A stretch of DNA of 64,000 nucleotides from an uncultured bacterium. GTDB lineage: Bacteria; Patescibacteriota; Minisyncoccia; Phycocordibacterales; GWA1-40-21. Shown here in pieces: positions 6,515-58,426 of this stretch; position 1 is the stretch's first letter, and each line of letters starts with the position of its first letter. The notes beneath the pieces were generated by a model. The model had not been told where the DNA came from and made no database searches. It worked only from the letters and a program-made list of their open reading frames with translations. The stretch is from the NCBI GenBank assembly GCA_963804975.1, contig CAWDSG010000002.1, positions 208,991 through 272,990 on the forward strand, written 5' to 3'. Position numbers and translations under genes: made by a program.

Positions 6515-6611
6515 AAGACCATTCAATTTTGAGGTACGCATAATTTCCTGCTGGAAATTTGCTCGATACTCGCGCCGACGCGCTCCGTAGCCCTCAAAAT
6601 TGAATGGTCTT
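6515..6611. repeat. hairpin-embedded intergenic repeat, copy B (between rpmE and prfA)
   Basis: Perfect 20-bp arms (aagaccattcaattttgagg / cctcaaaattgaatggtctt) around the same 75-nt core as copy A, with 1 mismatch. Confidence 0.85.
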
Positions 6612-12308: not shown

Positions 12309-12314
12309 AAATGT

Positions 12315-12974
12315 ATGGGACAAATTGTAAAAAATCTGCCGAAAAGCGCGTGGAATGAGGTTATTGTTCATGAAAATAATGAGCCAATAATAACTCTGCA
12401 TGAAACAGATAAATTAATTTTTTGGGGAAAATTATCGTCATTTTCTGTAAATGAATATAAGGTAAGAAAAACAATCGCTAATATGCTGTATAAAGTTTCT
12501 GAAATTTTGCCAGAGAAATATAAATTAGTGATTATTGAAGGAGTTCGCTCATTATCAAAACAGAAAAAACAATGGGATGATAAAATTGAAGAATTAAAAA
12601 AATTATATCCTGATTTATCAAAGGAAGAAGTTGAACATAAAGCCGGATTGGAAAACGCGAGGCCAACTCCGCTTGCAAACCATAACTGCGGCGGAGCTGT
12701 TGATGTCGCTTTGGCTTACGTAGACGGTGTGCTTGTTGATATGGGAACATTGCCGCAATCTTCAACGCATGAAAAAGAAAAATTAGAAATGTTTTCTTTG
12801 TTTATAACAGAAAAACAAAAACATAACAGAAAAATTCTTCGCGATGCGATGGTAGAAATCGGCTTTATCTGGTATCCGGGAGAATGGTGGCATTATTGCT
12901 ATGGCGATCGAATGTGGGCCGTGTATTCAGGCAGAACAGAATGCTTTTATGGTCCACTAGAATCTGACAAATAA
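12315..12974 (+). CDS. D-Ala-D-Ala dipeptidase-like M15 metallopeptidase (VanX/DdpX family)
   Basis: Zn-ligand style 'NHNCGGAVDV' (H...D) and the C-terminal 'GEWWHY' motif characteristic of VanX/DdpX. Confidence 0.6.
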   Translation: MGQIVKNLPKSAWNEVIVHENNEPIITLHETDKLIFWGKLSSFSVNEYKVRKTIANMLYKVSEILPEKYKLVIIEGVRSLSKQKKQWDDKIEELKKLYPDLSKEEVEHKAGLENARPTPLANHNCGGAVDVALAYVDGVLVDMGTLPQSSTHEKEKLEMFSLFITEKQKHNRKILRDAMVEIGFIWYPGEWWHYCYGDRMWAVYSGRTECFYGPLESDK

Positions 12975-31933: not shown

Positions 31934-33946
31934 CTATTCAACTACCTCATAATCCATCTGCTTTCTGTCTAGGTCTGCGCTGACAAGCTTGATTTTTACC
32001 TTTTGTCCTAGCGAAAAAGTTCTTTTTGTTTTTTCGCCGACAATGGCGTATTTTTTGGGATTGAAGACATAAAAATCGTCTCCGAGTGAAGAAAGCTTAA
32101 TCATTCCTTCGGCTCTGGTTTGCGTATCTTCCGCATATATGCCCCATTCGGTGACGCCGGTAATAAGTCCGTCAAAAATTTGCCCGACTTTATCCTGCAT
32201 AAATTCCACCTGCTTGTATTTTCTTGCGTCTCGCTCGGCTTCCGAAGCTTTTATTTCTTGGTCGGTGGAATGTTGGCAAGCTTTCTCATAAAAAGCCAGA
32301 TTTTTTTCCTGAACGGAATTTTTTGAAAGAATGTTTCCGAGAATTCTGTGCACCAAAAGGTCCGGATATCTTCTGATAGGCGAGGTGAAGTGCGCGTAAT
32401 ATTCAAACGCAAGTCCGAAATGGCCGATATTTTTTACCGAATAAATCGCTTTGGCCATTGAGCGCACTGCGGCAGTTTTTACCAAAGCTTCCTCCGCCTT
32501 TCCTTCCACTTGAGCGAAAAGCGCCTGCATATCCTTGCCGGTGATGCTTCCGTTTTTGCCGATGATAAGCTCATGCCCCAGTGCTTTTACAAACACCGAA
32601 AGTTCGGTGATCTTTTCTCTGTCCGGAAAATCGTGTATCCTGTACGGAATGGGGAAAAGTTTCCCGGATTTCTTTTCAAATTTATAAACAAACTCGGCGA
32701 CTTCTTTGTTTGCAAGAAGCATAAATTCCTCCACGAGTTTGTGGGTATCAAGCCATTCTTTTTTGTAAATTCTTATCGGTTTGCCGCTCTGGTCAAGCTC
32801 AAAAGCGATCTCTTCCTGCTCAAAATCAATCGCGCCTTTTTGCCATTTTTCTTTTCTCAATATTTTTGCAATTTTGTTTAGAGTATCCAGTTCCTCAAAG
32901 AATCGCCCGGATTTTTGATTGATAATTTCCTGCGCGCTTTCGTATGAAAATCTTTTATCCGATTTGATGACAGTTCTTCCGAACCATTTTGAATGCACTT
33001 TTGCCCACGCATCCATTTCAAATATCGCGGAAAATGTGAGTTTATCTTCATTTTCATTCAAACTGCAGAGATTGTCGGAAAGCTCAAAGGGAAGCATCGG
33101 TATTGTTCTGTCAGGCAAATACACCGAACATCCTCGATTGTAGGCCTCCTTATCAAGTTCACTTCTTTCTTTTACATAATAAGATACATCGGCAATATGA
33201 ATACCGATTTCAAAATTTCCATTTTGAAGTTTTTTGAAAGATATGGCGTCGTCAAAATCTTTTGCGTTTTTCGGGTCAATGGTAAAAGTGAGTGTGTTTC
33301 GCAAATCTTTTCTATTTGCAATTTCTTCTTTTGGAATATTTCTATTTTGTTCAAAAATTACTTTTGATTCTCTGGAAGCACTCTCGGGAAATTCAATATT
33401 AAAACCTTTATCAATGGCAATAGAATTCATTTCCGTGGAGTTTTCGCCCTTTTTTCCAAGAACGGCTATGATTTCTCCTTCGGCAAAATTTTGCATTGGA
33501 ACCCACTTCGTAATTTTTATTTTTACTTTATCTTCGTCTTTTGCACTGCCTATTTTTTCACGTGGAATTTTTACGGACATCTTTAATTTCTTGTCATCTG
33601 GCGCAAAAGCAATTCCTTTTCCTGCCTGGCCGGCAGGCAGGTCTGAAATTAAAACAGTGCCGACAAAATAACTTTTTGCTCTCTCTATAACTCTCACAAC
33701 TTCTCCGCCCGATAATCCGGATTTGCTTTTTCCGTAGATTTTTACTTCAACTTTGTCTCCGGACATCGCGGAGTTCAAATCTCTCGCGGATATTTCAGCC
33801 TCAACATCTCCTTTTTCAGCCAAAAAATAGGCGATATTGCCTCGTATGGATTTTATCGTGCCGATAAATATTTTACTTTTTCCATTTTGTCCGGATTTTT
33901 CGTGGAGATTTTTTCTATCTCTTCTGAATCTTTTATAGTTTTTCAT
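31934..33946 (-). CDS. rnr: ribonuclease R (RNB family 3'-5' exoribonuclease)
   Basis: N-terminal cold-shock/OB, RNB domain ('HIADVSYYV', 'YLPDRTIPMLP'), C-terminal S1; carries the in-frame 23-nt element near the N-terminus. Confidence 0.85.
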   Translation of the reverse strand: MKNYKRFRRDRKNLHEKSGQNGKSKIFIGTIKSIRGNIAYFLAEKGDVEAEISARDLNSAMSGDKVEVKIYGKSKSGLSGGEVVRVIERAKSYFVGTVLISDLPAGQAGKGIAFAPDDKKLKMSVKIPREKIGSAKDEDKVKIKITKWVPMQNFAEGEIIAVLGKKGENSTEMNSIAIDKGFNIEFPESASRESKVIFEQNRNIPKEEIANRKDLRNTLTFTIDPKNAKDFDDAISFKKLQNGNFEIGIHIADVSYYVKERSELDKEAYNRGCSVYLPDRTIPMLPFELSDNLCSLNENEDKLTFSAIFEMDAWAKVHSKWFGRTVIKSDKRFSYESAQEIINQKSGRFFEELDTLNKIAKILRKEKWQKGAIDFEQEEIAFELDQSGKPIRIYKKEWLDTHKLVEEFMLLANKEVAEFVYKFEKKSGKLFPIPYRIHDFPDREKITELSVFVKALGHELIIGKNGSITGKDMQALFAQVEGKAEEALVKTAAVRSMAKAIYSVKNIGHFGLAFEYYAHFTSPIRRYPDLLVHRILGNILSKNSVQEKNLAFYEKACQHSTDQEIKASEAERDARKYKQVEFMQDKVGQIFDGLITGVTEWGIYAEDTQTRAEGMIKLSSLGDDFYVFNPKKYAIVGEKTKRTFSLGQKVKIKLVSADLDRKQMDYEVVE
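33621..33643 (-). repeat. in-frame palindromic 23-nt element (DLPAGQAG) in rnr
   Basis: The plus strand reads cctgcctggccggcaggcaggtc. Confidence 0.9.
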
Positions 33947-34027: not shown

Positions 34028-34477
34028 ATGTTAATAATAAGATTACAAAGAAAAGGCAGAGTGCACGAACCGACTTTTCGCATAGTTGTCACCGATTCAA
34101 AATTCGGGGTAAAATCCGGCAAACCTGTCGAGGTTATCGGCTCTTATGATCCAAGAAAAGGAAAAGGCAATAACAGCGTAGATGGAGAAAGAGTGAAATA
34201 CTGGATATCAAAAGGAGCACAAGTTTCCGATACGGTATATAATTTTATGATAGACCAGAAAGTTCTTACAGGGAAAAAGATAAATGTACTTCCCAAGAAT
34301 AAAATAATAAACGCAAAGAAAGCCAAAGACCTGCCTACCGGCCAGGCAGGAGCGGAAGCGGCGGCAAAAGCTTCAAAACCGGATTTGACAAGCTCACCGC
34401 AAGAAAAGCCGGCAAAAGAAATGCCAGCTGCAGAAGCAAAAGTAGAACCGGCTCCAGAACCGGCCGTTGTTCAATAA
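34028..34477 (+). CDS. rpsP: 30S ribosomal protein S16 with C-terminal extension
   Basis: 'MLIIRLQRKGRVHEPTFRIVVTDSK' S16 N-terminus; A/K/E-rich tail hosting the in-frame 23-nt element. Confidence 0.85.
   Translation: MLIIRLQRKGRVHEPTFRIVVTDSKFGVKSGKPVEVIGSYDPRKGKGNNSVDGERVKYWISKGAQVSDTVYNFMIDQKVLTGKKINVLPKNKIINAKKAKDLPTGQAGAEAAAKASKPDLTSSPQEKPAKEMPAAEAKVEPAPEPAVVQ
34328..34350 (+). repeat. in-frame palindromic 23-nt element (DLPTGQAG) in the rpsP tail
   Basis: gacctgcctaccggccaggcagg. Confidence 0.9.
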
Positions 34478-34705: not shown

Positions 34706-35032
34706 ATGTCAGAAAACGATGCAAAATTCCTGGAATTCGTTATAAAGGCTTTGGTTGACAGTCCGGATAAGGTAAAAATCAAGAGGACTGTGGACGAAAT
34801 GGGCGTGTTGCTGACTCTCGTCGTGGATAATGCCGATATGGGCAAAGTCATCGGAAGATCAGGTAATACCGCAAAAGCCATCAGAACGCTTTTGAGAGTT
34901 GTCGGGATGAAGAACAATTCAAGAGTGAATTTGAAAATCGAAGAACCGGAGGGTAGCACAAGAATGGTGCCTGTTTCGAAAGAGCAAGGTTCAAAGACAG
35001 TGGACGAAGCAATGGCAGATTTGAATCTCTAA
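34706..35032 (+). CDS. KH-domain RNA-binding protein (YlqC/UPF0109 family)
   Basis: 'VIGRSGNTAKAIRTLL' GXXG KH loop; canonical position between rpsP and trmD. Confidence 0.75.
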   Translation: MSENDAKFLEFVIKALVDSPDKVKIKRTVDEMGVLLTLVVDNADMGKVIGRSGNTAKAIRTLLRVVGMKNNSRVNLKIEEPEGSTRMVPVSKEQGSKTVDEAMADLNL

Positions 35033-46021: not shown

Positions 46022-47245
46022 TTGGTGAATTCAATCAATTTTAAAATAGAAAAAAAGCTGGAAGGAAAGCTCGGCAGGGCGGGGATTTTGGAAACACCGC
46101 ACGGCTCTATTGAGACGCCGGCTTTTGTCGTAGTTGGCACAAAAGCTACCGTTAAATCGCTAAATCCGGAGCAGGTGAGAGACGCAGGTGTCCAAGCCAT
46201 TCTTGCAAACACATATCACTTGTATCTTCAGCCAGGCGATGAATCGGTCAAAAAAATGGGTGGGCTTCACAAAATGATGAATTGGAATGGACCTATAATG
46301 ACCGACTCCGGAGGTTTTCAGGTTTTTTCTCTTGGCGCCGCTTATGGAAAAGGAATTTCAAAAATTCTGCAAATTACCAATCCGTCGCTTTTGATTCCGG
46401 AGAGGTTTGACGATTCTGATGCACCACGGCTTGCAAAAATAGGGCAGGATGGCGTTTCTTTCACGTCCCATCTTGACGGTTCGGTTCATTATATTACTCC
46501 GGAAAAATCCATAGAGATTCAGCACAATCTGGGTGCGGATATTATTTTTGCTTTTGATGAATGCACTTCACCGTCGGAAGATTTAAAATATCAGGAAGAA
46601 GCACTTGAAAGAACCCACAGTTGGGCAAAAAGATCTCTTATGGAGCATAATAAACTGAATAAAAAAAATAAAGTTGCCTTATTCGGAATAGTGCAAGGAG
46701 GCAGGAAAGAAAAGCTTAGGAAAAAATCTGCAAAAATCATTTCCGAAATGGAGGTGGATGGAAAAAAGTTTGACGGATTCGGCATCGGCGGTTCGTTTGC
46801 AAAAGAAGATATGTCCACGGCGGTAAAATGGGTAAATGGAGTTTTGCCGCCCGATAAGCCGAGGCATCTTCTCGGTATCGGCGAGCCGGAAGATTTGTTT
46901 ATGGGAATTGAAAACGGAATAGACCTTTTTGACTGCGTCCTGCCCACACGGCTTGGCAGAAATGGAACTTTATATACAAAAAATGGCAAAATTCACATAA
47001 TGAATTCGGAATACAGAGGAGATTTAGCGCCAGTTGAAAAAGATTGCGAATGCTATACCTGCGAGAATTATTCAAAAGCTTATCTGGCGCATCTTTTCCA
47101 CGGAAAAGAAATGCTCGGTGGTACGCTTGCATCAATTCACAATATTTATTTTATTGTGAATCTGGTAAAAAAAATCCGCCAGTCCATTTTTGACGGCAAT
47201 TTTGATGAATTTAAAAAAGAGTTTTTGAAAAATTATAAGAAATAA
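46022..47245 (+). CDS. tgt: queuine tRNA-ribosyltransferase
   Basis: 'ILANTYHLYL', 'TDSGGFQVFSL', zinc site 'CECYTCENYSKAYLAHL'. Confidence 0.9.
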   Translation: MVNSINFKIEKKLEGKLGRAGILETPHGSIETPAFVVVGTKATVKSLNPEQVRDAGVQAILANTYHLYLQPGDESVKKMGGLHKMMNWNGPIMTDSGGFQVFSLGAAYGKGISKILQITNPSLLIPERFDDSDAPRLAKIGQDGVSFTSHLDGSVHYITPEKSIEIQHNLGADIIFAFDECTSPSEDLKYQEEALERTHSWAKRSLMEHNKLNKKNKVALFGIVQGGRKEKLRKKSAKIISEMEVDGKKFDGFGIGGSFAKEDMSTAVKWVNGVLPPDKPRHLLGIGEPEDLFMGIENGIDLFDCVLPTRLGRNGTLYTKNGKIHIMNSEYRGDLAPVEKDCECYTCENYSKAYLAHLFHGKEMLGGTLASIHNIYFIVNLVKKIRQSIFDGNFDEFKKEFLKNYKK

Positions 47246-47258
47246 ACCTCAAAACAAA

Positions 47259-47279
47259 CCCCGAGGTTTAACCTCGGGG
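47259..47279 (+). terminator. intrinsic terminator after tgt, identical hairpin to 15597-15617
   Basis: ccccgaggtttaacctcgggg. Confidence 0.75.
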
Positions 47280-47355
47280 GAATTGTCAACAATTAAAAAT
47301 AAAAAAACCGGCTTGCAAATGGCGCAGGCCGGTAATTACATAAAAGACGAAAGTT

Positions 47356-47484
47356 TTAATCGTTGCGGAATACTTTTTCTCCAGCTTTTCCGATTTTAAC
47401 TGCACTGGATTCTTCAAAACGATTTGCTTTTTTTCGCTTCTTACTGATCAACAATTTCATTTTTTTGGTTTTTCCTTTTTTCAT
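47356..47484 (-). CDS. 42-aa lysine-rich peptide, translationally coupled (TGATG) to the upstream ORF
   Basis: Not in the ORF track (<60 aa): MKKGKTKKMKLLISKKRKKANRFEESSAVKIGKAGEKVFRND; its ATG overlaps the stop of the 47484-47696 ORF. Confidence 0.2.
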   Translation of the reverse strand: MKKGKTKKMKLLISKKRKKANRFEESSAVKIGKAGEKVFRND

Positions 47485-47696
47485 CACTTTCTCCTTTTCT
47501 TTTTTGGCTTTCGTCTTTCTAAAATAATCTTTACCTCAGCCAAACGTTTTCTCGCAGCTTCAAAAATACTTGGTTTGTTGTTAAGAAGTTGCTGAAGTGT
47601 TGATGTGAACATAAACGAACTCTGACTTATTCTCATCTGGTTATTACCATGGCAAAAATTTTTGGCCAATTTTAGCATTTCCAAATTCATTGACAT
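47484..47696 (-). CDS. hypothetical small protein
   Basis: 70 aa; AAAGGAG RBS; TTGACT-17-TAATCT promoter shared with the next module. Confidence 0.3.
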   Translation of the reverse strand: MSMNLEMLKLAKNFCHGNNQMRISQSSFMFTSTLQQLLNNKPSIFEAARKRLAEVKIILERRKPKKKRRK

Positions 47697-47818
47697 GAAT
47701 TTTTCTCCTTTTCTAAGAACTTGTTTCTATTGAAAGATTACATAAAAAAGCAAGTAAAGTCAATAAAAAAACCACAATTCTAAAATACAAATTGTGGTTT
47801 TAGGAAACGAAAAAACGA

Positions 47819-48136
47819 TTATTTTTTTTGTCTGATTGCAAGTAAATAATTTACGTAAACTCTGAAGACTCTTGTAACAGAGTTTCCACGGAGAATACAG
47901 ATAACCAGTTTAATCTTCGCCATGTCTTCCTTTGGCGGAAGAAGATTTCTTTTTTGAAGATCAAGCAAAACCTTAATATCAACTTTCGTTAGTGTGTCCG
48001 GAACATCCGACGGCTCAAATATTTCTTGAAGACGACCCAAGTCAGTATTGGTAAACCCATAATCACTCCCATATTTTTTCAGGATCTGATTTTGAGTTTT
48101 TTCCTCTGTCTTCCCCCCATCTCTTCTTTTTGCCAT
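47819..48136 (-). CDS. hypothetical small protein
   Basis: 105 aa; GGGAGG RBS; TTGACT-17-TAGTAT promoter (minus strand, 48180-48210); palindromic terminator at ~47763-47795. Confidence 0.3.
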   Translation of the reverse strand: MAKRRDGGKTEEKTQNQILKKYGSDYGFTNTDLGRLQEIFEPSDVPDTLTKVDIKVLLDLQKRNLLPPKEDMAKIKLVICILRGNSVTRVFRVYVNYLLAIRQKK

Positions 48137-48216
48137 ACATCCTCCCTTTTCAATTTTTCAACTCAACTTGATTTCCGAGGTAGAATACTACATAATAAAG
48201 CAAATAAAGTCAAGAT

Positions 48217-50265
48217 ATGAGCAAATTCAAGATAAAAGCAGAATATAAGCCGGCGGGAGATCAGCCACAGGCCATAAACGAGCTTGTGGATGGCATAGAA
48301 GCGGGTCTGAATAAGCAGACCCTTTTTGGCGTTACCGGAAGCGGGAAAACTTTCACCATCGCAAATGTCATAGAAAAAACTCAAAAGCCGACGCTTGTCA
48401 TTGCTCACAACAAAACTCTCGCTGCCCAGCTCGCCCAAGAATACAAAGAATTTTTCCCCGACAACGCCGTGCATTATTTCGTTTCGTATTACGACTACTA
48501 TCAGCCGGAGGCCTATATGCCGATCACGGACACTTATATTGAAAAAGAAGCGATGATAAATGAGGAGATCGACCGCCTTCGCCACGCTTCCACGCAGGCA
48601 TTGCTGACAAGAAAGGATGTGATCATTGTTGCCTCGGTTTCCTGCATTTACGGCTTGGGTTCTCCGGAAGATTATGAAAAGGTAAATATCAAACTCAATA
48701 TCGGCGACAAAACCACACGGCAGGATTTGATTAAAAAACTTATAAATGTTCATTTTAAAAGGACAAACTCGGACATTACCGCTGGCTCGTTCCGCGCAAT
48801 CGGCAATGCTATTGAAGTGATGCCGGTAAATGAAAAAATTCTCATTAGAATTGACCTCGCGGATGACCAGATAAAAAATATCTCGCGGATTGATTCGGTT
48901 TCAAGAAAGCTCGTGAAAGACAGTTTGAAATCAGTTTTCATTTTTCCGGCAAAACATTTTATTACGGATAAGGACCAGCAAAAGCGGGCGATAGCGAGCA
49001 TAAAAATTGAGCTTGAAGAGCAATTGAAAAAGCTGAAAAAGGAAGGCAGGCTTCTTGAAGCGGAAAGATTGCGAAGAAGAACCGCGCACGACTTGTCGCT
49101 CATAAGAGAAGTTGGTTATTGCAACGGCATTGAAAATTATTCAAGGCATTTTTCGGGGAAAGTTGCAGGAGAACCGCCGGATACCTTGCTTTCATATTTT
49201 CCAAAAGATTTTCTGACAGTAATAGACGAATCGCATGTCACGGTTTCGCAGATAAGAGGAATGTATGCCGGCGATGCTTCCAGAAAAAAGACACTTATTG
49301 ATTATGGTTTCAGATTGCCGTCTGCAAAAGACAACAGACCGCTCAAGTTTGAAGAATTTGAAAAGAAAGTCGGACAGACGATTTACACTTCCGCTACGCC
49401 GGGAGATTATGAAAGAGAAAATTCCAAGAAGATTGTGGAACAGATTATCAGGCCGACGGGTTTGATAGACCCGGTTATGGATATAAAACCGATTACCGAG
49501 GTAAAAGGTCGTAATAAATCGCAGGTTTATGATTTTATTGATGAAGCGCTGAAAGTTATAAAAAATGGGGGAAGAGTGATAGCAACAACGCTTACAAAAA
49601 AGATGGCGGAAGATTTGAGCGAATATCTGAAAGACCTGCCTACCGGCCAGGCAGGGAAAGGTAAAATCAAAGCGGAATATTTGCACAGCGAAATAAAAAC
49701 GATAGACAGAATAGATATTTTGACGAATTTCCGCAAAGGCAAATTTGATTGTATTGTCGGCGTGAACCTTTTGAGAGAGGGTTTGGATTTGCCGGAAGTG
49801 GAGTTTATCGGAATTCTTGATGCGGACAAGGAAGGATTTTTGCGTTCAGACACTTCGCTGATACAGACCATCGGCAGAGCTGCGAGAAATATTGCAGGCC
49901 GAGTGGTGCTTTATGCAGACCGAATTACCGGCTCAATTGAAAGGGCAGTGGATGAGACAAATAGACGAAGGGAAAAACAGATTGCTTACAACACAAAGCA
50001 TGGCATTACTCCAAAAACGATCGTCAAAAAGATCCACGATATTACCGAGCATATGCGAAGCGACCACGACAGAGCTGTTGCCGAACTTGTCAAAATTGAC
50101 GAGCAAATGGCAGAAAAAAGTCCCGCAAAATTGATTAAGCAAAAAGAAATTCAAATGAACGCCGCTGTGAAAATCCTGGATTTCGAATCCGCCGCGATTT
50201 TAAGGGATGAAATAGCAATATTAAAGAAACGACCAGAAACCAAACCTACAAAAGTAACAATCTAA
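48217..50265 (+). CDS. uvrB: excinuclease ABC subunit B
   Basis: 'GDQPQAINELVDG', Walker A 'GVTGSGKTFT', beta-hairpin, C-terminal UVR domain 'AAILRDEIAILKK'; in-frame 23-nt element at 49633-49655. Confidence 0.95.
   Translation: MSKFKIKAEYKPAGDQPQAINELVDGIEAGLNKQTLFGVTGSGKTFTIANVIEKTQKPTLVIAHNKTLAAQLAQEYKEFFPDNAVHYFVSYYDYYQPEAYMPITDTYIEKEAMINEEIDRLRHASTQALLTRKDVIIVASVSCIYGLGSPEDYEKVNIKLNIGDKTTRQDLIKKLINVHFKRTNSDITAGSFRAIGNAIEVMPVNEKILIRIDLADDQIKNISRIDSVSRKLVKDSLKSVFIFPAKHFITDKDQQKRAIASIKIELEEQLKKLKKEGRLLEAERLRRRTAHDLSLIREVGYCNGIENYSRHFSGKVAGEPPDTLLSYFPKDFLTVIDESHVTVSQIRGMYAGDASRKKTLIDYGFRLPSAKDNRPLKFEEFEKKVGQTIYTSATPGDYERENSKKIVEQIIRPTGLIDPVMDIKPITEVKGRNKSQVYDFIDEALKVIKNGGRVIATTLTKKMAEDLSEYLKDLPTGQAGKGKIKAEYLHSEIKTIDRIDILTNFRKGKFDCIVGVNLLREGLDLPEVEFIGILDADKEGFLRSDTSLIQTIGRAARNIAGRVVLYADRITGSIERAVDETNRRREKQIAYNTKHGITPKTIVKKIHDITEHMRSDHDRAVAELVKIDEQMAEKSPAKLIKQKEIQMNAAVKILDFESAAILRDEIAILKKRPETKPTKVTI
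49633..49655 (+). repeat. in-frame palindromic 23-nt element (DLPTGQAG) in uvrB
   Basis: gacctgcctaccggccaggcagg. Confidence 0.9.
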
Positions 50266-50344
50266 TTGAAGTTGTTTGTACTGTGGATAACTAAGTGTTG
50301 CAAAAAAGGGTATAATAGGCACGTAAAAGGATCTGAATTTTTTC

Positions 50345-50373
50345 TTGCTAATTAAAAATATTTGTGTTATAAT
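50345..50373 (+). promoter_or_regulatory. sigma70-type promoter TTGCTA-17-TATAAT abutting the Panacea gene ATG (leaderless-type)
   Basis: The -10 box ends 6 nt before the ATG at 50380; no SD. Confidence 0.55.
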
Positions 50374-50379
50374 CAAGGC

Positions 50380-50922
50380 ATGAAAATACCCATCACAAAA
50401 CTTAAGGCAATATTGTTGTATTTTTATACTTATACAGATTCACGACTTCTTGGAAAAGTGAAGTTAATGAAACTGTTTTATTTTCTTGATTTTACTCACA
50501 TAAAAAAATATGGTGTTCCTGTAACATTTGATACTTATGTAAAATTGGAACACGGACCAATACCTTCCACAATAAAAAACCTTATCGATACTGCAGATGA
50601 TGATATTGATAACTCATTCTTATCAGATACAATTTCTATTGAAATGTCTGAAGAAAATAAAATGCACCGTATTGTTGGATCAAGAAAATTCAATGACAAA
50701 GATAGCAAATTATTCTCTGAAAATGAATTAAAAATTCTTCAGGAAGTATGTTTACGATTTGGAGATAAAAATACAGGATATATTGAAAAAGCTTCTCATG
50801 AAGAAGCTCCTTGGAAATTATCAAACATGTTTGATAATATTTCTTATTCTTTGGCGGCAAAAGATACTGATAGTTTGATTTCAGAAGAACAAATAAAATT
50901 TTTTGAAGAAATAACAAAATAA
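50380..50922 (+). CDS. Panacea-domain (DUF4065, SocA-like) antitoxin-type protein
   Basis: 'KLMKLFYFLDFTHIKKYGVPVTFDTYVKLEHGPIPSTI' matches the DUF4065/Panacea core. The track uses TTG at 50362; the first ATG is 50380, directly after TTGCTA-17-TATAAT. Confidence 0.65.
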   Translation: MKIPITKLKAILLYFYTYTDSRLLGKVKLMKLFYFLDFTHIKKYGVPVTFDTYVKLEHGPIPSTIKNLIDTADDDIDNSFLSDTISIEMSEENKMHRIVGSRKFNDKDSKLFSENELKILQEVCLRFGDKNTGYIEKASHEEAPWKLSNMFDNISYSLAAKDTDSLISEEQIKFFEEITK

Positions 50923-50926
50923 TTCA

Positions 50927-51316
50927 ATGGATGGAACTCTTGTAACATTTGGAGACGTTTTTAGATACAACGAAGAATTTTATGTTTATTTAGCATTAAA
51001 CGCAGATGCGGGTATATTATATGCTGCAAGAATATTAAATGAAGGTCAAACCAAGGCGTTTGATAAGATGAGTATTAAAAGTAAGATTGACGATGAAAAA
51101 AACTTGACCTTTTGTTATGTTATGCTCAAAACGGAAAATTTTAAAAATAGAGCGGCTCATTTTTATCAAAATGAACATGAAAGTTCAAATATCTATATAG
51201 AAAAATTTTGTTCACTTGATAAAGAAGATTTAATAAAGATAAAAGCCCAGGTAATGGATAGTAAGGCAATATCTCAAAACTTGAAAGATGCAGTCAAAGA
51301 TATTACTCTGTCATAA
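50927..51316 (+). CDS. hypothetical protein, candidate toxin partner of the Panacea gene
   Basis: 129 aa, starts 4 nt after the Panacea stop, no recognisable domain. Confidence 0.35.
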   Translation: MDGTLVTFGDVFRYNEEFYVYLALNADAGILYAARILNEGQTKAFDKMSIKSKIDDEKNLTFCYVMLKTENFKNRAAHFYQNEHESSNIYIEKFCSLDKEDLIKIKAQVMDSKAISQNLKDAVKDITLS

Positions 51317-51365
51317 CTATAAATGGTAAGGTTGAACTTTGCCATTTATAATAATTTTGATTTAT

Positions 51366-51397
51366 TTGCCAAACTTTAAAACTAAGAATAGTATAAT
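51366..51397 (+). promoter_or_regulatory. TTGCCA-17-TAGTAT(AAT) promoter of module 51405
   Basis: Conserved 'atttgccaaa' -35 context. Confidence 0.5.
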
Positions 51398-51404
51398 TTA
51401 ACAT

Positions 51405-51956
51405 ATGTATATATCAACTTGGATCATTATAATTATAGTTATTGTTGGAATATATTTTTACCGTAAATCCAAAAAGCAAAATAAGAGTATATCAGAAAAT
51501 CAATTGCTAACCGCTGATGAAATGTGGGTACGAGCAGAAGTATATATGGAAAGAGTAATGAGAAAAAGTCCTAATATAGAAAAATATCTGCAAGATGAAA
51601 GAGATATGGTAAAAGCTATGGAAAGAGACATGGTACGCCTTCGGGAACGTTTTAAACATGATCCAAAAAAACAACTTGAGATTGCACAAGGTTGGATGGA
51701 TTATTCTCATGCAGTAGAAAGGATAAAATTTTCTAGAGAGTTATTAGATGTTGATATGGAACATAATGCTTATGATTCGCATGATGAACGAACTAAGGAA
51801 GCGTGGATTACTATACCAGAAATTGCAAAACGAGTTGAAAATATACTTGGAAAAGATTCGAGTTCTAAGTTAGTGCATGACAGGCTTTATAGAAATGCAG
51901 AAGCTACAGGAGAGGTTGTTACTGATTTTGTTCTTAAAAATAAAAATAAATCTTAA
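51405..51956 (+). CDS. membrane-anchored hypothetical protein
   Basis: N-terminal TM (WIIIIIVIVGIYFY), charged helical remainder; own TTGCCA-17-TAGTAT promoter abutting the ATG. Confidence 0.3.
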   Translation: MYISTWIIIIIVIVGIYFYRKSKKQNKSISENQLLTADEMWVRAEVYMERVMRKSPNIEKYLQDERDMVKAMERDMVRLRERFKHDPKKQLEIAQGWMDYSHAVERIKFSRELLDVDMEHNAYDSHDERTKEAWITIPEIAKRVENILGKDSSSKLVHDRLYRNAEATGEVVTDFVLKNKNKS

Positions 51957-52006
51957 GAAATTTTGATATCATTGTTGATTTCAGCAATTTTAATTAATTT
52001 CCCAAT

Positions 52007-52042
52007 CTCCAAAACCAAAATAAAAGAAAATCCCACGAAAAC
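52007..52042 (+). repeat. 36-nt direct repeat, left copy (ctccaaaaccaaaataaaagaaaatcccacgaaaac)
   Basis: About 33 of 36 identical to 52674-52709; flanks the two-gene module 52133-52614. Confidence 0.75.
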
Positions 52043-52058
52043 CGTGCGGTTTTTTTAT

Positions 52059-52087
52059 TTGCCAAAAATACAAACTCGGCGTAGTAT
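52059..52087 (+). promoter_or_regulatory. TTGCCA-17-TAGTAT promoter of module 52133
   Basis: tttatttgccaaaaatacaaactcggcgtagtat. Confidence 0.5.
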
Positions 52088-52132
52088 TTAAGATAGAAGT
52101 AAATTGACTAAATCCGATTCAAGGAGATAGCG

Positions 52133-52381
52133 ATGAAAAAAACATTTAAGAGATTATGGTTGCATGTTTTATTAATCGGCAAGACGTTGAACACTAGTGG
52201 AATCATTTGTTTCTTCAGGCTAAGACACAAGTTTGATCCGATTGAAGTTGAAGCTCATTATTTGCATGCCAAATGTTATCTATGCAAAAAAAAGCTTTAT
52301 TACGCCAAATCTTCCAACGAGTATAAAAACTTGTTGGAAGAAAATTCGCGATTCTTGAAAACGAAAGGAATGGAATCATGA
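52133..52381 (+). CDS. hypothetical small protein (module gene 1)
   Basis: 82 aa; AAGGAG RBS; its stop overlaps the next gene's start (ATGA). Confidence 0.3.
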   Translation: MKKTFKRLWLHVLLIGKTLNTSGIICFFRLRHKFDPIEVEAHYLHAKCYLCKKKLYYAKSSNEYKNLLEENSRFLKTKGMES

Positions 52382-52614
52382 AAAAAGTTGAATTGACATT
52401 TATGGTCGTCCCCGAGTTTTTGAAAAGCCATTGTTTCATCAAAGATCCGGTCAAGATCAAGATCATTGATCCAGGAGCCATTTTTCTTACAGGCATTCTC
52501 GGCGAAAGCGGAAGAAAAATGGTGAAGGCGGGCATTCCATTTTATTTCAAACGGAAGCTTGCCGAACATTTGATCAATAAAGGAATCGCGGTACGAATAC
52601 CAAGCAGGAAATAA
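52378..52614 (+). CDS. hypothetical small protein (module gene 2)
   Basis: 78 aa, translationally coupled to the upstream gene. Confidence 0.3.
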   Translation: MKKVELTFMVVPEFLKSHCFIKDPVKIKIIDPGAIFLTGILGESGRKMVKAGIPFYFKRKLAEHLINKGIAVRIPSRK

Positions 52615-52673
52615 TATCGCATTTCCAACAAAAGCACACGACCTTCTGGTACGGTGCTTTTTTATTTGCTAAC

Positions 52674-52709
52674 CTCCAAAACCAAAATAAACGAAAACCC
52701 CACAAAAAC
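52674..52709 (+). repeat. 36-nt direct repeat, right copy (ctccaaaaccaaaataaacgaaaaccccacaaaaac)
   Basis: See the left copy. Confidence 0.75.
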
Positions 52710-52710
52710 T

Positions 52711-52932
52711 CTAAGGTCTTCGTGGGGATTTTTTTCTTCTTGGCTTGGTTCCCAAACAGCACAAACCAGTCCTTATCTTTTTTGAATGAATCGGATGTTC
52801 TGTTTCAAATCCGCATTCAGGACACGGATGGCCGCGATAAGGTTTGAATGTTCGCGCCTTTACAGATGCGGCATGACCAGTAGACCCATTTAAATTAAAA
52901 AGCAATTCTTCTTTTATAGTTTTAAGTTTCAT
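52711..52932 (-). CDS. hypothetical small protein with zinc-ribbon-like CPECG motif
   Basis: 73 aa; AAAGGAG RBS on the minus strand; 'HPCPECGFETEHPIH...CC'. Confidence 0.25.
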   Translation of the reverse strand: MKLKTIKEELLFNLNGSTGHAASVKARTFKPYRGHPCPECGFETEHPIHSKKIRTGLCCLGTKPRRKKSPRRP

Positions 52933-53000
52933 GGCAAACTCCTTTCGTTTTCAATCTATTTTCAGTATAAACAAATAATAATATTTGTCTAGATTTAAAT

Positions 53001-53028
53001 TTGCCAAAATCCAAAATAGGTGTAATAT
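53001..53028 (+). promoter_or_regulatory. TTGCCA-16-TAATAT promoter of module 53109
   Basis: aaatttgccaaaatccaaaataggtgtaatat. Confidence 0.45.
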
Positions 53029-53108
53029 CCAATCAGAAGCAAAAATCGATAAACCGGAGAAGTTGAGTCATCAGCGCAATCTAAAATTCTTTTGAAAAGG
53101 AGAAAACA

Positions 53109-53771
53109 GTGAAAAAATTGTTCGCCGTCGTCGTTTTGTTTTTAGTCGTTGTTTCAAATGTTTCGGCAGGAAGCAGTGAATTTAAAGTAGGAATCGGACC
53201 GGAAATAAACTGGACGAACGTTCCTATCACCTCTGATCCGACAATTGGAAACGTGGTTTTGGGAAATCCTGCGATAGGGGAGAATATTTTTTTACAGTAC
53301 AGGCCGAAATATCTTTTCGGAACAATCGCCGTGAAAGCCGAAGCGAGCATGTTCGGAAAACAGGACTTTGCCTCGGAGAACCTGAGCGTGTCGGGAAGCG
53401 AAACGACAAGCTCATGTGGCTTTATTTTGAAAGTTTATCCTCCGGTCAAAGGACATATTGAACCGTATGGCGGAATCGGCGCCGATTATGTCAGCGTTAT
53501 AGGCGGATATTCTCGCCCGACAACCCAGACGATAAATATTTACGGCCAATCGGTTGATATTCCGACGATGACCACGACAGCGGTTTGTCTCGGATCATGG
53601 ATACCCAAAGCAGAGGTTGGCGCGGATATATCCATTATCGATGATCATTTCTCAATATATATAGAAGGATTTGATATGTTTTTAAATGAAATGAAAGGCG
53701 GCGAAGCCGATAATCTTGCAAAGAAAGCCAGCAGTATCGGATTATCGGTAGGAGGAGCCATATCGTTTTAA
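53109..53771 (+). CDS. secreted beta-rich protein resembling an 8-strand outer-membrane beta-barrel (OmpW/OMP_b-brl-like)
   Basis: GTG start after AGGAG; signal peptide ...VSA/GS; alternating hydrophobic dyads; C-terminal '...GLSVGGAISF' ending in Phe, as in OMP beta-signal. Confidence 0.4.
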   Translation: MKKLFAVVVLFLVVVSNVSAGSSEFKVGIGPEINWTNVPITSDPTIGNVVLGNPAIGENIFLQYRPKYLFGTIAVKAEASMFGKQDFASENLSVSGSETTSSCGFILKVYPPVKGHIEPYGGIGADYVSVIGGYSRPTTQTINIYGQSVDIPTMTTTAVCLGSWIPKAEVGADISIIDDHFSIYIEGFDMFLNEMKGGEADNLAKKASSIGLSVGGAISF

Positions 53772-53837
53772 TTAAAAAGATATATTAAAATTAAAAACCC
53801 GTTTCAAAGAAAAGAAACGGGTTTTTTATTGCAAAAT

Positions 53838-53886
53838 TTGCCAAAACTCTTATTTTCTTGACTTTACTAAATATTAATGATACTAT
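53838..53886 (+). promoter_or_regulatory. promoter region of module 53925 (TTGCCA context; TTGACT-17-TACTAT)
   Basis: aaatttgccaaaactcttattttcttgactttactaaatattaatgatactat. Confidence 0.4.
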
Positions 53887-53924
53887 TGCTTTAGAGTAAA
53901 ACATCCGCCACGAGGGAGGATCAC

Positions 53925-54371
53925 ATGTTATCTGATAAATCAAATAAGATTGATTTGTCTGAGGAAATTATGTGTGCATTGATATTTGCAAGAAGCATAA
54001 TACGGAAATTTTTTGGCCGAAACATTGTCTTTAAACAAGCGACTATTTATCAAGAAAACAAAGAGGTTGATAGGTATGAAGTCGAAATCAAAACGGTAAT
54101 AAAAACTGAAGATAGCTGCAACCCATTTCTCTTTGGAGTTGTATTTGGTTTTACGCTTGCCGGCACGAATGGCTTTTCGCCTGAACCAAATGGCGAAGTA
54201 GCAATGCGGTTGGTGTACGGTATGGGGAAAAAGGATGAAGACCTTTCTTTCGTTTATAATCAAGGAGGGTTTAATTTCTCCGACAACACACGAAAACTTT
54301 TGAATGAACTACGCGCAAAGATAGGTTTACCAGAAATAGATTTGCCGGAATTCATTCAAAACCCATCTTGA
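53925..54371 (+). CDS. hypothetical protein
   Basis: 148 aa; GGGAGG RBS; own promoter and terminator. Confidence 0.3.
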   Translation: MLSDKSNKIDLSEEIMCALIFARSIIRKFFGRNIVFKQATIYQENKEVDRYEVEIKTVIKTEDSCNPFLFGVVFGFTLAGTNGFSPEPNGEVAMRLVYGMGKKDEDLSFVYNQGGFNFSDNTRKLLNELRAKIGLPEIDLPEFIQNPS

Positions 54372-54434
54372 TAAATATCGACAACGCCCACGAAAAGCCC
54401 AGTGCTTCTCGCGGGCTTTTTGTTTGTAAAATAT

Positions 54435-54463
54435 TTGCCAAATTTATAAACTAAGAGTAATAT
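54435..54463 (+). promoter_or_regulatory. TTGCCA-17-TAATAT promoter of uvrA
   Basis: atatttgccaaatttataaactaagagtaatat. Confidence 0.5.
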
Positions 54464-54513
54464 GCTCGTACATAACCCTATGGGGCAAACCCGAGGGTAA
54501 TTTGGCTTTATAT

Positions 54514-57204
54514 ATGAAAACAACATTTAACGAAAAGTCACCAAAAATCATTGTAAAAGGGGCGAGAACTCACAATCTTAAGAATATTACTGTTGAGATG
54601 CCTCGCAATAAGATGATCGCCATTACAGGGATTTCCGGCTCAGGGAAGTCGTCTTTTGCATTTGACACTATTTTTGCCGAAGGCCAGAGGCGATATGTTG
54701 AATCGCTTTCTTCTTATGCAAGGCAATTTTTGCATCAGATGCAGAAGCCGGATGTGGACGAAATAGTCGGGCTTTCGCCTGCAATTTCAATAGACCAAAA
54801 ATCCCGTTCAAACAATCCTCGTTCAACCGTGGCGACTATCACGGAAATTTACGATTATTTGAGAATTTTATATGCAAGAATCGGCAAACCGCACTGCCTT
54901 GTCTGCGGACGCGAAATTAAAAAACTTTCAAAAGAGGAAATTTTGGAAACAATTATTCATACTGTTACGCATATCAAATCTCCGCAGAAATCCAAAGAAG
55001 TGCTCGGGGTGAAAGTAACAAGCGACCCCGGTGAAGTAAAAAACGCACTACTTCACGGGGCAAGCAAGATCAGAATTTTTTCTCCGGTTGTTGTCGGCAG
55101 AAAAGGGGAGTACTACCAGCTTCTTTACGATTTGATAGAAAAGGGCTATGAATACGTAAAAATAGACGGCGAGCTTAAAAAGCTCCGCAACCAGATAATT
55201 CTCGCCAAAAACAAAAAGCACGATATTGATGTGCTTGTTGATGAATTTTACATAAGCGAGTTTATTTTGACAAAAACTGGCACAAGCAAGGCAGTTGAAG
55301 CGGATAGGCAAAGATTTGAAAATGTAAAAACCCGACTTTCAGACGCGGTGGAAAAAGCCATTGAGGAATCAAAAGGGCTTTTGAAAATTGAAACGCCTGA
55401 AGACCTGCCTACCGGCCAGGCAGGAACCAAAATGATCTCCGTTAAATTTATGTGCCCTTACGATGGCTATTCATATCCAGAAATAGAACCGCGGCTTTTT
55501 TCATTCAATTCGCCATATGGCGCATGTCTAACTTGCCACGGCCTCGGCACAAAAGATTTTTGGACTGACGAACCTTGCGAAACGTGTCATGGCAAGAGAT
55601 TGCGAGAAGAAGCGCTGCATGTACTTATTGGAGATATAAATATCGTGGAATATACCGCTAAATCAATCGGAGATGCGAAAAATTTTATGGAAAATCTGAA
55701 ATTGACCGAGCTTGAACAGGAAATTTCCCGGGTAATTCTGAAAGAAATTGACTCACGGCTCCAATTTATGATGGATGTCGGCATTGAATATCTTTCGCTT
55801 GATAGACGGGCAAATACTCTTTCAAACGGCGAAGCGCAAAGAATCCGCCTTGCTTCGCAGCTCGGCTCCGGCCTTGTCGGCGCTCTTTATGTGCTGGATG
55901 AACCGACAATCGGCTTGCATCAGAGAGACAACGACAAGCTTATAAAAACATTGATAAATCTGCGCGATCTGGGAAATACGATTCTTGTGGTTGAACACGA
56001 CGAAGATACGATGTTTGCTTCGGATTATATCGTTGATATCGGTCCCGGTGCCGGAGTGCACGGAGGAAAAGTCGTTGTTTCCGGATATATGGACGAGCTT
56101 TTGACCGCGAAAGAAAATAAATCCGGTTCAATCACGCTTGATTATCTTCGCGGTGATATGAAAATTGAAATGCCGAAAAAAAGACGCGATCAAGACAAGG
56201 GAAAAATAAAAGTGCGAGGCGGAAAAATTTTCAATATAAAAAATATGAATGTTGAAGTGCCGCTTGGAAAATTTGTGACTATCACGGGAGTGTCCGGCTC
56301 GGGAAAGTCATCTCTGGTATATGAGATTTTGCACAAAAACCTGCGGGCACGGCTTGAAAGAAAATTTCGCAACGCAAATACTTACAATTGCGAGTCATTT
56401 GCCGGCTCGGAATATGTTTCAAGGACGATTATGATAGACCAGTCGCCGATAGGAAGGACTCCTCGTTCAAATCCGGCAACTTATATCGGTGCGTGGACTT
56501 TTATCCGCGATATGTTTGCTATGACGGCGATGGCGCGAGAAAGAGGCTGGGGAGCAAACAGATTTTCATTTAACGTAAAAGGCGGAAGATGCGAAGCATG
56601 CCAAGGAAACGGAACGATTGAAGTGGAAATGCACTTTTTGCCGACGATTTATGTGCCGTGCGACATTTGCCATGGAAAAAGATTTACCAAGGAGACATTG
56701 GAAGTGAAATACAAAGGGAAAAATGTCCATCAAGTGCTTGAAATGACTGCAGAGGAAGCTTTGGAATTTTTTGCCGATTTGCCGGCGGTTTACGACAGGT
56801 TGAAATGCGTGAATGAAGTCGGACTTGGATATTTGAAACTCGGGCAATCTGCCACGACGCTTTCCGGCGGAGAAGCGCAGAGAGTGAAAATCGCTTCGGA
56901 ACTTTACAGGCCGGATTTGCACAAGACAATTTATTTTTTGGACGAGCCGACAATCGGGCTTCATTACGAAGATGTAAAAAAACTTATTGAAATTTTACAG
57001 AAGCTTGTTGATAACGGAAATACTGTCGTAGTTATTGAGCACAATATGGATCTGATAAAAAATTCCGATTATGTGATAGATATCGGGCCGGAAGGCGGAG
57101 ACAGGGGCGGGGAAATTGTCGCCAAAGGGACGCCGGAGAGTGTAGCGGAAAATGAAAAGAGTTATACTGGTAAATATTTGAAGAGAATTTTGAAGAGAAA
57201 ATAG
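54514..57204 (+). CDS. uvrA: excinuclease ABC subunit A
   Basis: '[14 protein letters not shown]', two ABC modules (GISGSGKSS..., GVSGSGKSS...), zinc fingers; the track start TTG at 54502, and the ATG at 54514 aligns with the canonical UvrA N-terminus; in-frame 23-nt element at 55402-55424. Confidence 0.95.
55402..55424 (+). repeat. in-frame palindromic 23-nt element (DLPTGQAG) in uvrA
   Basis: gacctgcctaccggccaggcagg. Confidence 0.9.
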
Positions 57205-57208
57205 GAAA

Positions 57209-58426
57209 ATGAACAGTCAATATCTGAAAAAAATAAAATTGCCTAACAGTCCGGGAATATACATCTTTAAAAAAGATAGGCGAATTCTTTATATTGGAAA
57301 AGCGACATTGCTTAAAGACAGAGTGAGAAGCTATTTTGCTAATGATTTGATTACGACTCGCGGACCTGTAATCGTTGACATGGTTTTTAAGGCAAACAAA
57401 ATTGATTTTATAAAAACCGATTCCGTGCTTGAAGCCCTGATACTTGAGAGCAATCTGATAAAAAAGTATCAGCCAAAATACAATACAATTGATAAGGATG
57501 ATAGAAGCTATAACTATGCGGTGATTACAAAAGAAGATTTTCCGAGAGTTTTAGTTATCCGCGGAAAAGAATCGTTTGGCGGGAAAAGGTTCAACCTTGA
57601 GGAGCCAAAACTTTCAAAAATTTTCGGGCCTTTTGTTAACGGAACACAGCTCAAAGAAGCATTAAAAATTATCCGCAAAATTTTCCCATTTATTGATAAT
57701 TATTCGGAAAAGAAAACCGGATACAAATTTTACAGGGAAATCGGACTTGCGCCGGAAGTCGGCAGTGCCGAAGCGAAAAAAGATTATGAAAAAACGATCA
57801 GGAATATAAAACTGTTTTTTGAAGGTAAAAAAACAAGCATTATTAAAAACCTGAAAGGAGAAATGAAAGGCCTTGCCAAAAATCAGGAATTTGAAAAAGC
57901 CGATAAGGCGAAAAGAACCATTTTTGCTTTAAATCATATCCAAGATATTGCATTACTTAAAGACGAAAGTAAAAAGTTTGATATTGAAAACGGATTTCGC
58001 ATTGAAGCGTATGATGTGGCGCATACGAGCGGGACAAATACGGTTGGAGTTATGACGGTGATTGAAAACAGGAAAATAAACAAGAATGAATACAGAAAGT
58101 TCAAGATAAACAACAGCATTCGGAATGATATTGCCGCTCTTGAAGAAATATTAGAAAGACGGCTTAAACACACGGAATGGAAATTCCCGGATATAATCGT
58201 AGTTGACGGGGGAATCGCGCAGAAAAATATCGCTGAAAAAATCATAAGAAAATCCGGTCTGAAAATTGATGTGATAGCTGTCATAAAAAACGAAGCACAT
58301 AAACCAAAAAATATTCAGGGGAAATCAGATATTTTGGATAAATACAAAAACGAAATTATTCTTGCAAACAGCGAAGCGCACAGGTTCGCGATAAGTTATC
58401 ACAGAAATATCAGGGATAAATTTTAG
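57209..58426 (+). CDS. uvrC: excinuclease ABC subunit C lacking the C-terminal (HhH)2 domain
   Basis: GIY-YIG ('PGIYIFKK...ILYIGKA'), UVR motif, RNase-H-like endonuclease region ('AYDVAHTSGTN', 'IVVDGGIAQ'); ends before the helix-hairpin-helix pair. Confidence 0.75.
   Translation: MNSQYLKKIKLPNSPGIYIFKKDRRILYIGKATLLKDRVRSYFANDLITTRGPVIVDMVFKANKIDFIKTDSVLEALILESNLIKKYQPKYNTIDKDDRSYNYAVITKEDFPRVLVIRGKESFGGKRFNLEEPKLSKIFGPFVNGTQLKEALKIIRKIFPFIDNYSEKKTGYKFYREIGLAPEVGSAEAKKDYEKTIRNIKLFFEGKKTSIIKNLKGEMKGLAKNQEFEKADKAKRTIFALNHIQDIALLKDESKKFDIENGFRIEAYDVAHTSGTNTVGVMTVIENRKINKNEYRKFKINNSIRNDIAALEEILERRLKHTEWKFPDIIVVDGGIAQKNIAEKIIRKSGLKIDVIAVIKNEAHKPKNIQGKSDILDKYKNEIILANSEAHRFAISYHRNIRDKF

Follow-up and report, generated by a model that had tools for sequence, protein, structure and literature searches.

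What fills the 4.2 kb between uvrB and uvrA in the genome of an uncultured, Paceibacteria-like member of the Patescibacteriota (lineage GWA1-40-21), and by what means did it come to be there? The question concerns contig CAWDSG010000002.1, of which a stretch of 64 kb (positions 208,991 to 272,990) was analysed; this stretch is called the window, and all coordinates are counted from its first letter. The local gene order is tgt (46022-47245), uvrB (48217-50265), the island (50266-54501), uvrA (54514-57204, with an alternative TTG start at 54502) and uvrC (57209-58426). uvrB and uvrA, both on the plus strand, form the conserved left and right boundaries, and their spacing of about 4.2 kb agrees with an earlier reading made from the sequence alone, here called the original prediction, which took the interval for a hotspot where small defence and accessory genes land. 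The island is a real but fairly ordinary variable region, or islet, and not a specialised gene-capture system. With a probability of roughly 60%, it consists of six insulated units, comprising an imported PanA/MazF-like toxin-antitoxin pair and small lineage-specific genes that mostly stand behind copies of the uvrA promoter, and it probably grew at the terminator-promoter joint ahead of uvrA. The toxin-antitoxin module is a new member of a known family, and it is the multiplication of the promoter that is unusual.

The PanA pair and the row of units

The first unit begins with panA (50380-50922, plus strand), which encodes a Panacea-domain antitoxin of 180 amino acids (aa). Its match to the Pfam profile PF13274 (E 1.8e-20) takes in all 113 profile positions and scores 74.4 bits, where the cut-off is 25.7. 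A total of 635 homologues were found, the best of them 60-67% identical, and those with a named source belong to Patescibacteria. The next open reading frame (ORF), the panT candidate (50927-51316, plus strand), encodes 129 aa with a predicted MazF/Kid/CcdB-like fold: the modelled structure forms the SH3-like barrel of MazF and CcdB, at an identity to its structural matches of 5-14%. The 129-aa ORF has no match in Pfam at E<=0.1 and none in NCBIfam at E<=0.01, and a profile search of the PDB returned just noise at E=1. A word-indexed search gave the self-match alone; an exhaustive HMMER search recovered 234 related cluster representatives. In three loci (L162, L163 and L165) a 178-aa PanA homologue is followed, after a gap of 4-5 nt or with an overlap of 4 nt, by a 130-137-aa homologue of the 129-aa ORF that is 30-34% identical to it. 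These pairs sit in unrelated neighbourhoods of three Patescibacteria genomes, between the genes for ArgRS and a Mur ligase, for Vut_1 and NYN, and for a hypothetical protein and an aldolase. The match to PF13274 and the conserved two-gene arrangement together confirm the Panacea pair named in the original prediction.

PanA is known to pair with PemK/MazF-like toxins, and the order with the antitoxin upstream is the commoner one (PMC8832971). PanT proteins with a MazF/PemK-like fold have already been reported from Pseudomonas moraviensis and Bifidobacterium ruminantium (Kurata et al. 2022, PMC8832971; Ernits et al. 2023, PMC10440598). The pair in the islet resembles such systems in its Panacea protein of about 180 aa, which has no extra Pfam domain and lies directly upstream of a small partner, in the predicted MazF/PemK-like fold of that partner, and in a patchy distribution that is independent of context. 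It differs from them in that the partner family fits no sequence profile of Pfam, NCBIfam or the PDB; the three members examined genomically come from Patescibacteria or from contigs of uncultured communities. We infer toxin activity of the 129-aa protein from its modelled fold; if the pair works as validated PanA-PanT pairs do, PanA would bind the toxin and so neutralise it. A further difference is that the mRNA of the islet pair is probably leaderless. The promoter of the unit (50345-50373, plus strand; TTGCTA-N17-TGtTATAAT, with an extended -10) ends 6 nt ahead of the panA ATG, a distance that suggests a leaderless message, and the panA start is without a Shine-Dalgarno sequence (50368-50382). 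With the pair, the Panacea network of Patescibacteria gains a large partner family that carries no annotation and whose predicted fold is MazF-like.

The composition of the DNA is uneven. G+C content is 27-32% in the left part of the island and 33-48% in the right part, against about 42% in the flanks, and in a genomic-island composition test the left 1.7 kb alone deviates, the right part being host-like. The G+C content at third codon positions (GC3) is 0.18-0.23 in panA (0.18), its partner and the following 183-aa ORF (0.20) compared with 0.43 in core genes, which points to these three genes as recent imports. The first unit thus has the features of a horizontally acquired type II toxin-antitoxin pair in which the 129-aa ORF is the toxin candidate. 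Beyond PanA, scans of the island with PADLOC, NCBIfam and PHROGs gave marginal matches only.

The original prediction had described five to six self-contained modules. The sequence holds six units of promoter-ORF-terminator architecture, and a hairpin with a T-run follows every unit, as had been claimed, with folds at six sites and folding energies of -10.9 to -19.4 kcal/mol. On the plus strand, an AU-rich 15-bp hairpin after panT (51318-51350, -15.9 kcal/mol) is a weak terminator; the predicted terminator of the 183-aa ORF (52024-52056, a hairpin with a T-run) lies inside 51994-52056; that of a coupled pair of 82- and 78-aa ORFs (52630-52662, -15.1 kcal/mol) is followed by UUUUUUAUUU; and those of the 220-aa and 148-aa ORFs are found at 53793-53826 (-18.1 kcal/mol) and 54386-54425 (-19.4 kcal/mol). 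A bidirectional terminator (52698-52727, both strands) separates the convergent 78-aa and 73-aa ORFs. The duplicated segments that had been noticed among the spacers are real. A spacer repeat at 51994-52053 (plus strand) is 80% identical over 60 nt to a second copy at 52661-52720, and spacers S1-S6 resemble one another far beyond 300 shuffles: the score is 63 for S2/S3, where no shuffle exceeds 27, and 42 for S1/S6, where none exceeds 23. The spacer between uvrB and panA, S0, bears no resemblance to the others.

The repeated promoter

A 9-nt motif, TTTGCCAAA, occurs seven times on both strands of the window, and five of these occurrences are on the plus strand within the 3.1 kb of 51365-54442; the shuffle mean of 3.5 per window gives a calculated expectation of about 0.09 for such a stretch. 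At 51366, 52059, 53001 and 54435 it is followed 16-17 nt downstream by a TAGTAT or TAATAT hexamer. The site at 53837 has no properly spaced -10, and the promoter of the PanA unit is not of this type.

The last of these sites is the native promoter of uvrA (54434-54463, plus strand; TTTGCCAAA-N17-TAATAT; promoter and leader 54430-54513). In the closest relative found, a metagenome contig (L081, Ga0265593_1000015) whose UvrB is 82-83% identical, uvrA is preceded by GTTTGCCAAAT-N-GAGTAATATG and then by a leader that aligns with window 54433-54505 (L081 13897-13965). Because it is conserved upstream of uvrA in this relative, the TTTGCCAAA promoter is the ancestral uvrA promoter. Copy 1 (51361-51394, plus strand; TTTGCCAAA-N17-TAGTAT) stands before the 183-aa ORF. 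Aligned over 33 nt, with two gaps of 1 nt each, it is about 90% identical to the uvrA promoter of its own genome, and the match takes in the spacer block AAACTAAGA; the uvrA promoter itself is about 81% identical, by a count on the alignment, to its ortholog in L081. Copy 2 (52054-52087, plus strand) precedes the coupled 82/78-aa pair. Copy 3 (52999-53028) is a near-palindrome, TTTGcCAAA, that would serve both strands, with TTGCCA as the -35 for the 220-aa ORF and TTGGCA-N18-TATTAT for the divergent 73-aa ORF. A degenerate promoter motif, ATTTGCTAA, lies within 52661-52727. Copy 4 of the motif (53837-53845, plus strand) has no matching -10, and the likely promoter of the 148-aa ORF is a different one (53858-53886, plus strand; TTGACT-N17-TGaTACTAT).

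The claim that each module begins with a similar promoter therefore holds for the sites at 51366, 52059 and 53001; the site given as 53838 lacks a -10, and the one at 54435 belongs to uvrA. The earlier reading overlooked where the repeated promoter comes from, namely from uvrA itself. The promoter-like sites of other window genes are of the TTGACA or TTGACT kind, TTGACA being the usual -35 of this genome, and a TTGCCA-type site was found upstream of just one other window gene, at 34706. L081 has no additional copies of the uvrA promoter. Given the closer identity within the genome (about 90% against about 81% to L081), the usual -35 of TTGACA and the lack of extra copies in L081, the island promoters are best explained as diverged copies of the uvrA promoter that were made within the lineage, and not as a general consensus. 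Small orphan genes, among them those for a membrane-anchored 183-aa protein and a presumably secreted 220-aa protein, would make up units 2-6, and four of the five have a diverged copy as candidate promoter; the 148-aa unit carries the motif and would use its different promoter. uvrA would keep the last copy, so that its expression would be unaffected. As in other cases of promoter duplication within a locus, a segment of 33-43 nt that includes spacer and -10 is present in 4-5 copies, 76-90% identical to the uvrA promoter. The islet copies differ in that they precede unrelated genes, not duplicated ones. We know of no described case of a uvrA promoter multiplied in such a manner. Such multiplication of a housekeeping promoter before unrelated genes is unusual and may have a role in gene capture or co-regulation; nothing found in the islet changes current understanding.

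The same motif could be the mark of a shared regulon. TTTGCCAAA would then be the operator of a regulator, or would mark promoters read by an alternative sigma factor, with uvrA under its control. The island genes would not stand behind accidental promoter copies but would respond together with nucleotide excision repair, for instance to DNA damage or stress. Upstream of uvrA, L081 has exactly the same motif. It is palindromic (TTTG-c-CAAA, a near-palindrome that overlaps the -35) and rare in the rest of the window, where TTGACA sites are normal, and at 53837 it has no matching -10, as would suit an operator. However, the similarity runs on through the spacer AAACTAAGA and the -10, which argues for copying and not for convergence on a 9-nt site. 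TTTGCCAAA is missing upstream of uvrB and uvrC. Of 26 more distant relatives checked in the genome collection, 24 have no copy in their uvrB-uvrA gap, and the motif is not enriched in these gaps. No regulator was identified. We regard such a regulon as unlikely.

The leader of uvrA has features of its own. Conservation between the two genomes covers its first 45 nt or so (window 54464-54513; L081 13929-13980), which could fold into a small hairpin, CCCT...AGGG in one and CCCC...GGGG in the other, for which the two sequences give no covariation support. L081 has about 350 extra nt (13966-14319) between the conserved leader and the uvrA ATG. By eye, the only way in which a LexA/SOS box was looked for, nothing in the leader resembled known boxes. 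At gathering thresholds, Rfam finds tRNAs alone in the window and in L081, and no known RNA family in the island or the uvrA leader.

Reading frames of the remaining units

The island holds eight credible ORFs, of 180, 129, 183, 82, 78, 73 (minus strand), 220 and 148 aa, in place of the nine or more counted originally. Two Logan contigs of run ERR10755942 match window 48636-52216 and 52219-55226 exactly, and the gene calls on them yield the same set, the 82-aa ORF being cut by a contig end. The break between them (52217-52218) was considered as a hint of strain heterogeneity and dropped, as it is merely a 2-nt gap between identical sequences.

The 183-aa ORF (51405-51956, plus strand) combines a transmembrane anchor at its N-terminus with a charged helical tail. 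Its start lies 10 nt past the -10 hexamer and has no Shine-Dalgarno sequence (51389-51407), which suggests a nearly leaderless mRNA. The coupled pair (52133-52381, 82 aa; 52378-52614, 78 aa; plus strand) has Shine-Dalgarno sequences and an ATGA overlap of the kind that predicts translational coupling. The 73-aa ORF (52711-52932, minus strand) contains one CPEC motif and was called a zinc ribbon in the original prediction; searches of Pfam, PADLOC, NCBIfam and PHROGs return no family match for it. The 220-aa ORF (53109-53771, plus strand) has host-like G+C content, a signal-peptide-like N-terminus and a beta-rich sequence that ends in ...AISF. The original prediction called it OMP-like, and the only features in favour of an outer-membrane protein (OMP) barrel are the signal peptide and the C-terminal ...ISF; the single-sequence AF2 model reached a pLDDT of 35 and is unusable. 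The 148-aa ORF (53925-54371, plus strand) also has a Shine-Dalgarno sequence.

Six ORFs, those of 183, 82, 78, 73, 220 and 148 aa, have no match in Pfam, NCBIfam or PADLOC and marginal PHROG matches at most. The three that were tried against IMG/VR viral contigs (183, 148 and 220 aa) have no relatives there. The 220-aa protein matches nothing in Pfam, NCBIfam or PDB sequence searches, and a word-limited search among 5.8 billion proteins returned the self-match alone. The word-indexed search is insensitive: it missed relatives of the 129-aa protein that are 30-40% identical. Because it also missed that whole partner family, the negatives for the remaining ORFs are weak.

Are the right-hand ORFs (82, 78, 73, 220 and 148 aa) genes at all? 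They could be decaying or de novo frames without function, and the modules the debris of promoters and terminators. The 220-aa protein has no homologue except itself among the 5.8 billion, family matches are absent for any of them, and codon-score margins are weak for short ORFs. Against this, each island ORF scores higher in frame, on the codon usage of the window's core genes, than in both shifted frames; two long antisense ORFs score below the island ORFs, and an antisense 106-aa ORF at the coupled pair has the worse codon score. All five right-hand ORFs have a Shine-Dalgarno sequence at proper spacing, of the AGGAG type in these host-like ORFs of the right half, the 220-aa ORF has a canonical signal peptide, and the automatic gene caller agrees. 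The failed homology search is demonstrably insensitive. A lack of function is unlikely, and we prefer to read the right-hand ORFs as small genes of the islet.

Relatives, growth of the islet and nearby repeats

Among 185,579 species-representative genomes, those that match UvrB best do so at about 70% identity and are metagenome-assembled genomes of Parcubacteria, Zambryskibacteria or Taylorbacteria; a look-up of the exact UvrB protein returned no record. In 57-61 Patescibacteria loci in which uvrB is followed by uvrA, the gap between them ranges from about 0 to about 7.2 kb. Among 61 Patescibacteria-like loci examined, it is <150 bp in 20 and 150-999 bp in 13, while 17 have a gap of 1-3 kb and 11 one of >=3 kb. 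None of the 160 UvrB-derived loci, L081 included, encodes any of the island ORFs (tblastn, E<=1e-4). The expectation of a conserved boundary with variable content is thereby borne out. In L081 the gap is 2.3 kb and holds a histidine kinase and a response regulator. The 94 ORFs of the relatives' gaps are mostly ordinary (DUF218, FIST, YdjC, MurB, Ogt, GPI, glutamate dehydrogenase, BipA, adenylate kinase), and in the islet just one unit, the PanA pair, is of the defence or toxin-antitoxin type, so that the idea of a landing zone for small defence genes does not hold. Two-component genes recur among the 94 (response regulator 8, HATPase_c 6, HisKA 5, FIST 3), as in the gaps of L081, L082-L097 and others, and in some of the clade they may have occupied the junction from an earlier time.

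Nor is the interval a special hotspot. The junctions on either side are variable as well: the median gap is 348 bp at tgt|uvrB and 451 bp at uvrA|uvrC, against 827 bp at uvrB|uvrA, and L081 has different genes at all three. The variability of the gap looks like a general looseness of synteny that is somewhat stronger at uvrB|uvrA. The island shares with genomic islets at synteny breakpoints its conserved flanks (tgt-uvrB...uvrA-uvrC), its lineage-specific content, the partial compositional deviation of the insert and a toxin-antitoxin module. It differs from them in having no tRNA, integrase or flanking direct repeats, and in that the relatives' insertions at uvrB|uvrA are mostly housekeeping or signalling genes. 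The nearest tRNAs lie at 9.5 kb and 60.3 kb of the window, and no terminal direct repeats were found at the ends of the island, which therefore has none of the classical marks of a genomic island (tRNA/att flank, integrase, repeats).

A dedicated, integron-like system of cassette capture, with site-specific recombination at the repeated palindromic core, would account for the direct repeats of that core at every unit boundary, for a content wholly different from that of the nearest relative, and for a PanA pair that turns up in many contexts. The islet does resemble integron arrays as a row of small genes, mostly of unknown function and mainly in one orientation, with a toxin-antitoxin pair among them and a repeated sequence at each unit boundary. 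However, neither the island ORFs nor the ten flanking ORFs scanned (42.6-62.4 kb, about 8 kb on each side) match any integrase, recombinase or transposase of Pfam, IntI included, which bears out the absence of an integrase noted in the original prediction. The boundaries are terminator-promoter joints whose hairpins are followed by T-runs and read as terminators, not as attC sites, and each unit has its own sigma-70-like promoter where integron cassettes are promoterless. The clearest acquisition, the first unit, has no motif to its left (S0). A search for direct repeats in the gaps of three relatives and a promoter/terminator scan of one reveal no repeated promoter family or joints, and the neighbouring junctions are variable as well. 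We consider such a capture system very improbable. The low G+C content of the left 1.7 kb, the match of PanA to PHROG families and the label "phage-associated" that JGI gives to some homologues might indicate what is left of a prophage or of another integrated mobile element. We consider this highly improbable, since the islet has no phage structural, replication or integrase genes, none of the three ORFs tried matched IMG/VR, and PanA homologues lie among housekeeping genes in other Patescibacteria.

Under the reading that we prefer, that of insulated units added at their joints, the array would most likely have grown at the terminator-promoter joint that directly precedes uvrA, where segments were duplicated or recombined. 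Unequal crossing-over and Campbell-type homologous integration of incoming DNA are candidate routes, and no dedicated integrase would have taken part. The islet would then exemplify how streamlined Patescibacteria take in foreign or orphan genes without disturbing essential neighbours. More speculatively, and in our view quite improbably, the joint itself (hairpin, T-run and TTTGCCAAA promoter) could be a portable homology patch for Campbell-type integration upstream of uvrA. Each event would duplicate the joint and give the new gene a promoter and an insulating terminator, which would amount to the building of cassette arrays without an integrase in a naturally competent, recombinase-poor Patescibacteria genome; in a variant, the same joint would put all captured genes into the uvrA regulon.

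Several points weigh against the preferred reading. The toxin assignment follows from a predicted fold, and Pfam returns no PemK match. The promoters and terminators are consensus-level predictions, from which we infer transcription of the islet units. The 183-aa ORF is compositionally foreign yet stands behind a host-type promoter, a combination that requires two separate acquisitions or a later duplication of the promoter. The orphan status of five ORFs comes from limited searches, and real families may exist. The count of TTTGCCAAA promoters covers the 64 kb of the window, which is part of a contig of 606 kb.

The tgt-uvrB gap (47246-48216) holds two more promoter-ORF-terminator units on the minus strand (47484-47696, 70 aa; 47819-48136, 105 aa). 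Their promoters are alike (TTGACTTTAyTTGCTTT..TTATGTA), with a start, TTGACTTTAC, that is common to the promoter of the 148-aa ORF, and each unit has its own hairpin and T-run (47768-47801 and 47259-47279). The same junction in L081 is occupied instead by a GNAT-like protein and a large membrane protein. Just downstream of uvrB, L081 has a GC-rich, structured-looking stretch (12130-12440) that may be a non-coding RNA; it has no Rfam match at gathering thresholds, and the 79-aa ORF called there looks spurious. Elsewhere in the window, an intergenic element of about 75 nt is repeated, identical over at least 50 nt (867-916 and 6527-6576) and extending to about 866-945 and 6526-6603, upstream of genes at 996 and 6604. 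With its inverted ends ATTTTGAGG...CCCTCAAAAT, it looks like a miniature inverted-repeat transposable element (MITE).

A second repeat may be more interesting than the island itself. A palindrome of 21 nt with a 7-bp stem, CCTGCCT[A/G]CCGGCCAGGCAGG (CCTGCCTRCCGGCCAGGCAGG), occurs seven times in the window where none is expected, at 19093-19113(-), 20222-20242(-), 29976-29996(+), 33621-33641(-), 34330-34350(+), 49635-49655(+) and 55404-55424(+). Every copy lies within a housekeeping gene, and these genes encode ThrRS, DnaE, an SMC-like protein, RNase R, ribosomal protein S16, UvrB and UvrA. In all seven it has one orientation relative to the coding strand, follows codon position 2 and would add LP[T/A]GQAG to the protein, and the reading frame stays open when it is removed; 'GA' precedes six of the seven copies. 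No copy is intergenic in the window, none was found in 168 related loci, and the palindrome is also present in the independent assembly of run ERR10755942. On comparison with L081, its removal restores the junction in uvrA, and likewise in uvrB, where the sequence just downstream is nearly restored. The palindromic elements of Rickettsia (RPEs) are likewise in frame; the palindrome of the window is far smaller. UvrA of L081 carries a different in-frame insertion, ...VIPVKAGIHTDAKLDSRLHGNDK..., at residues 235-280 or so (about 15020-15160). That part of the protein is variable and lies upstream of the place where the window has its 21-nt insert. This insertion resembles what we take to be the translation of a widespread palindromic repeat.

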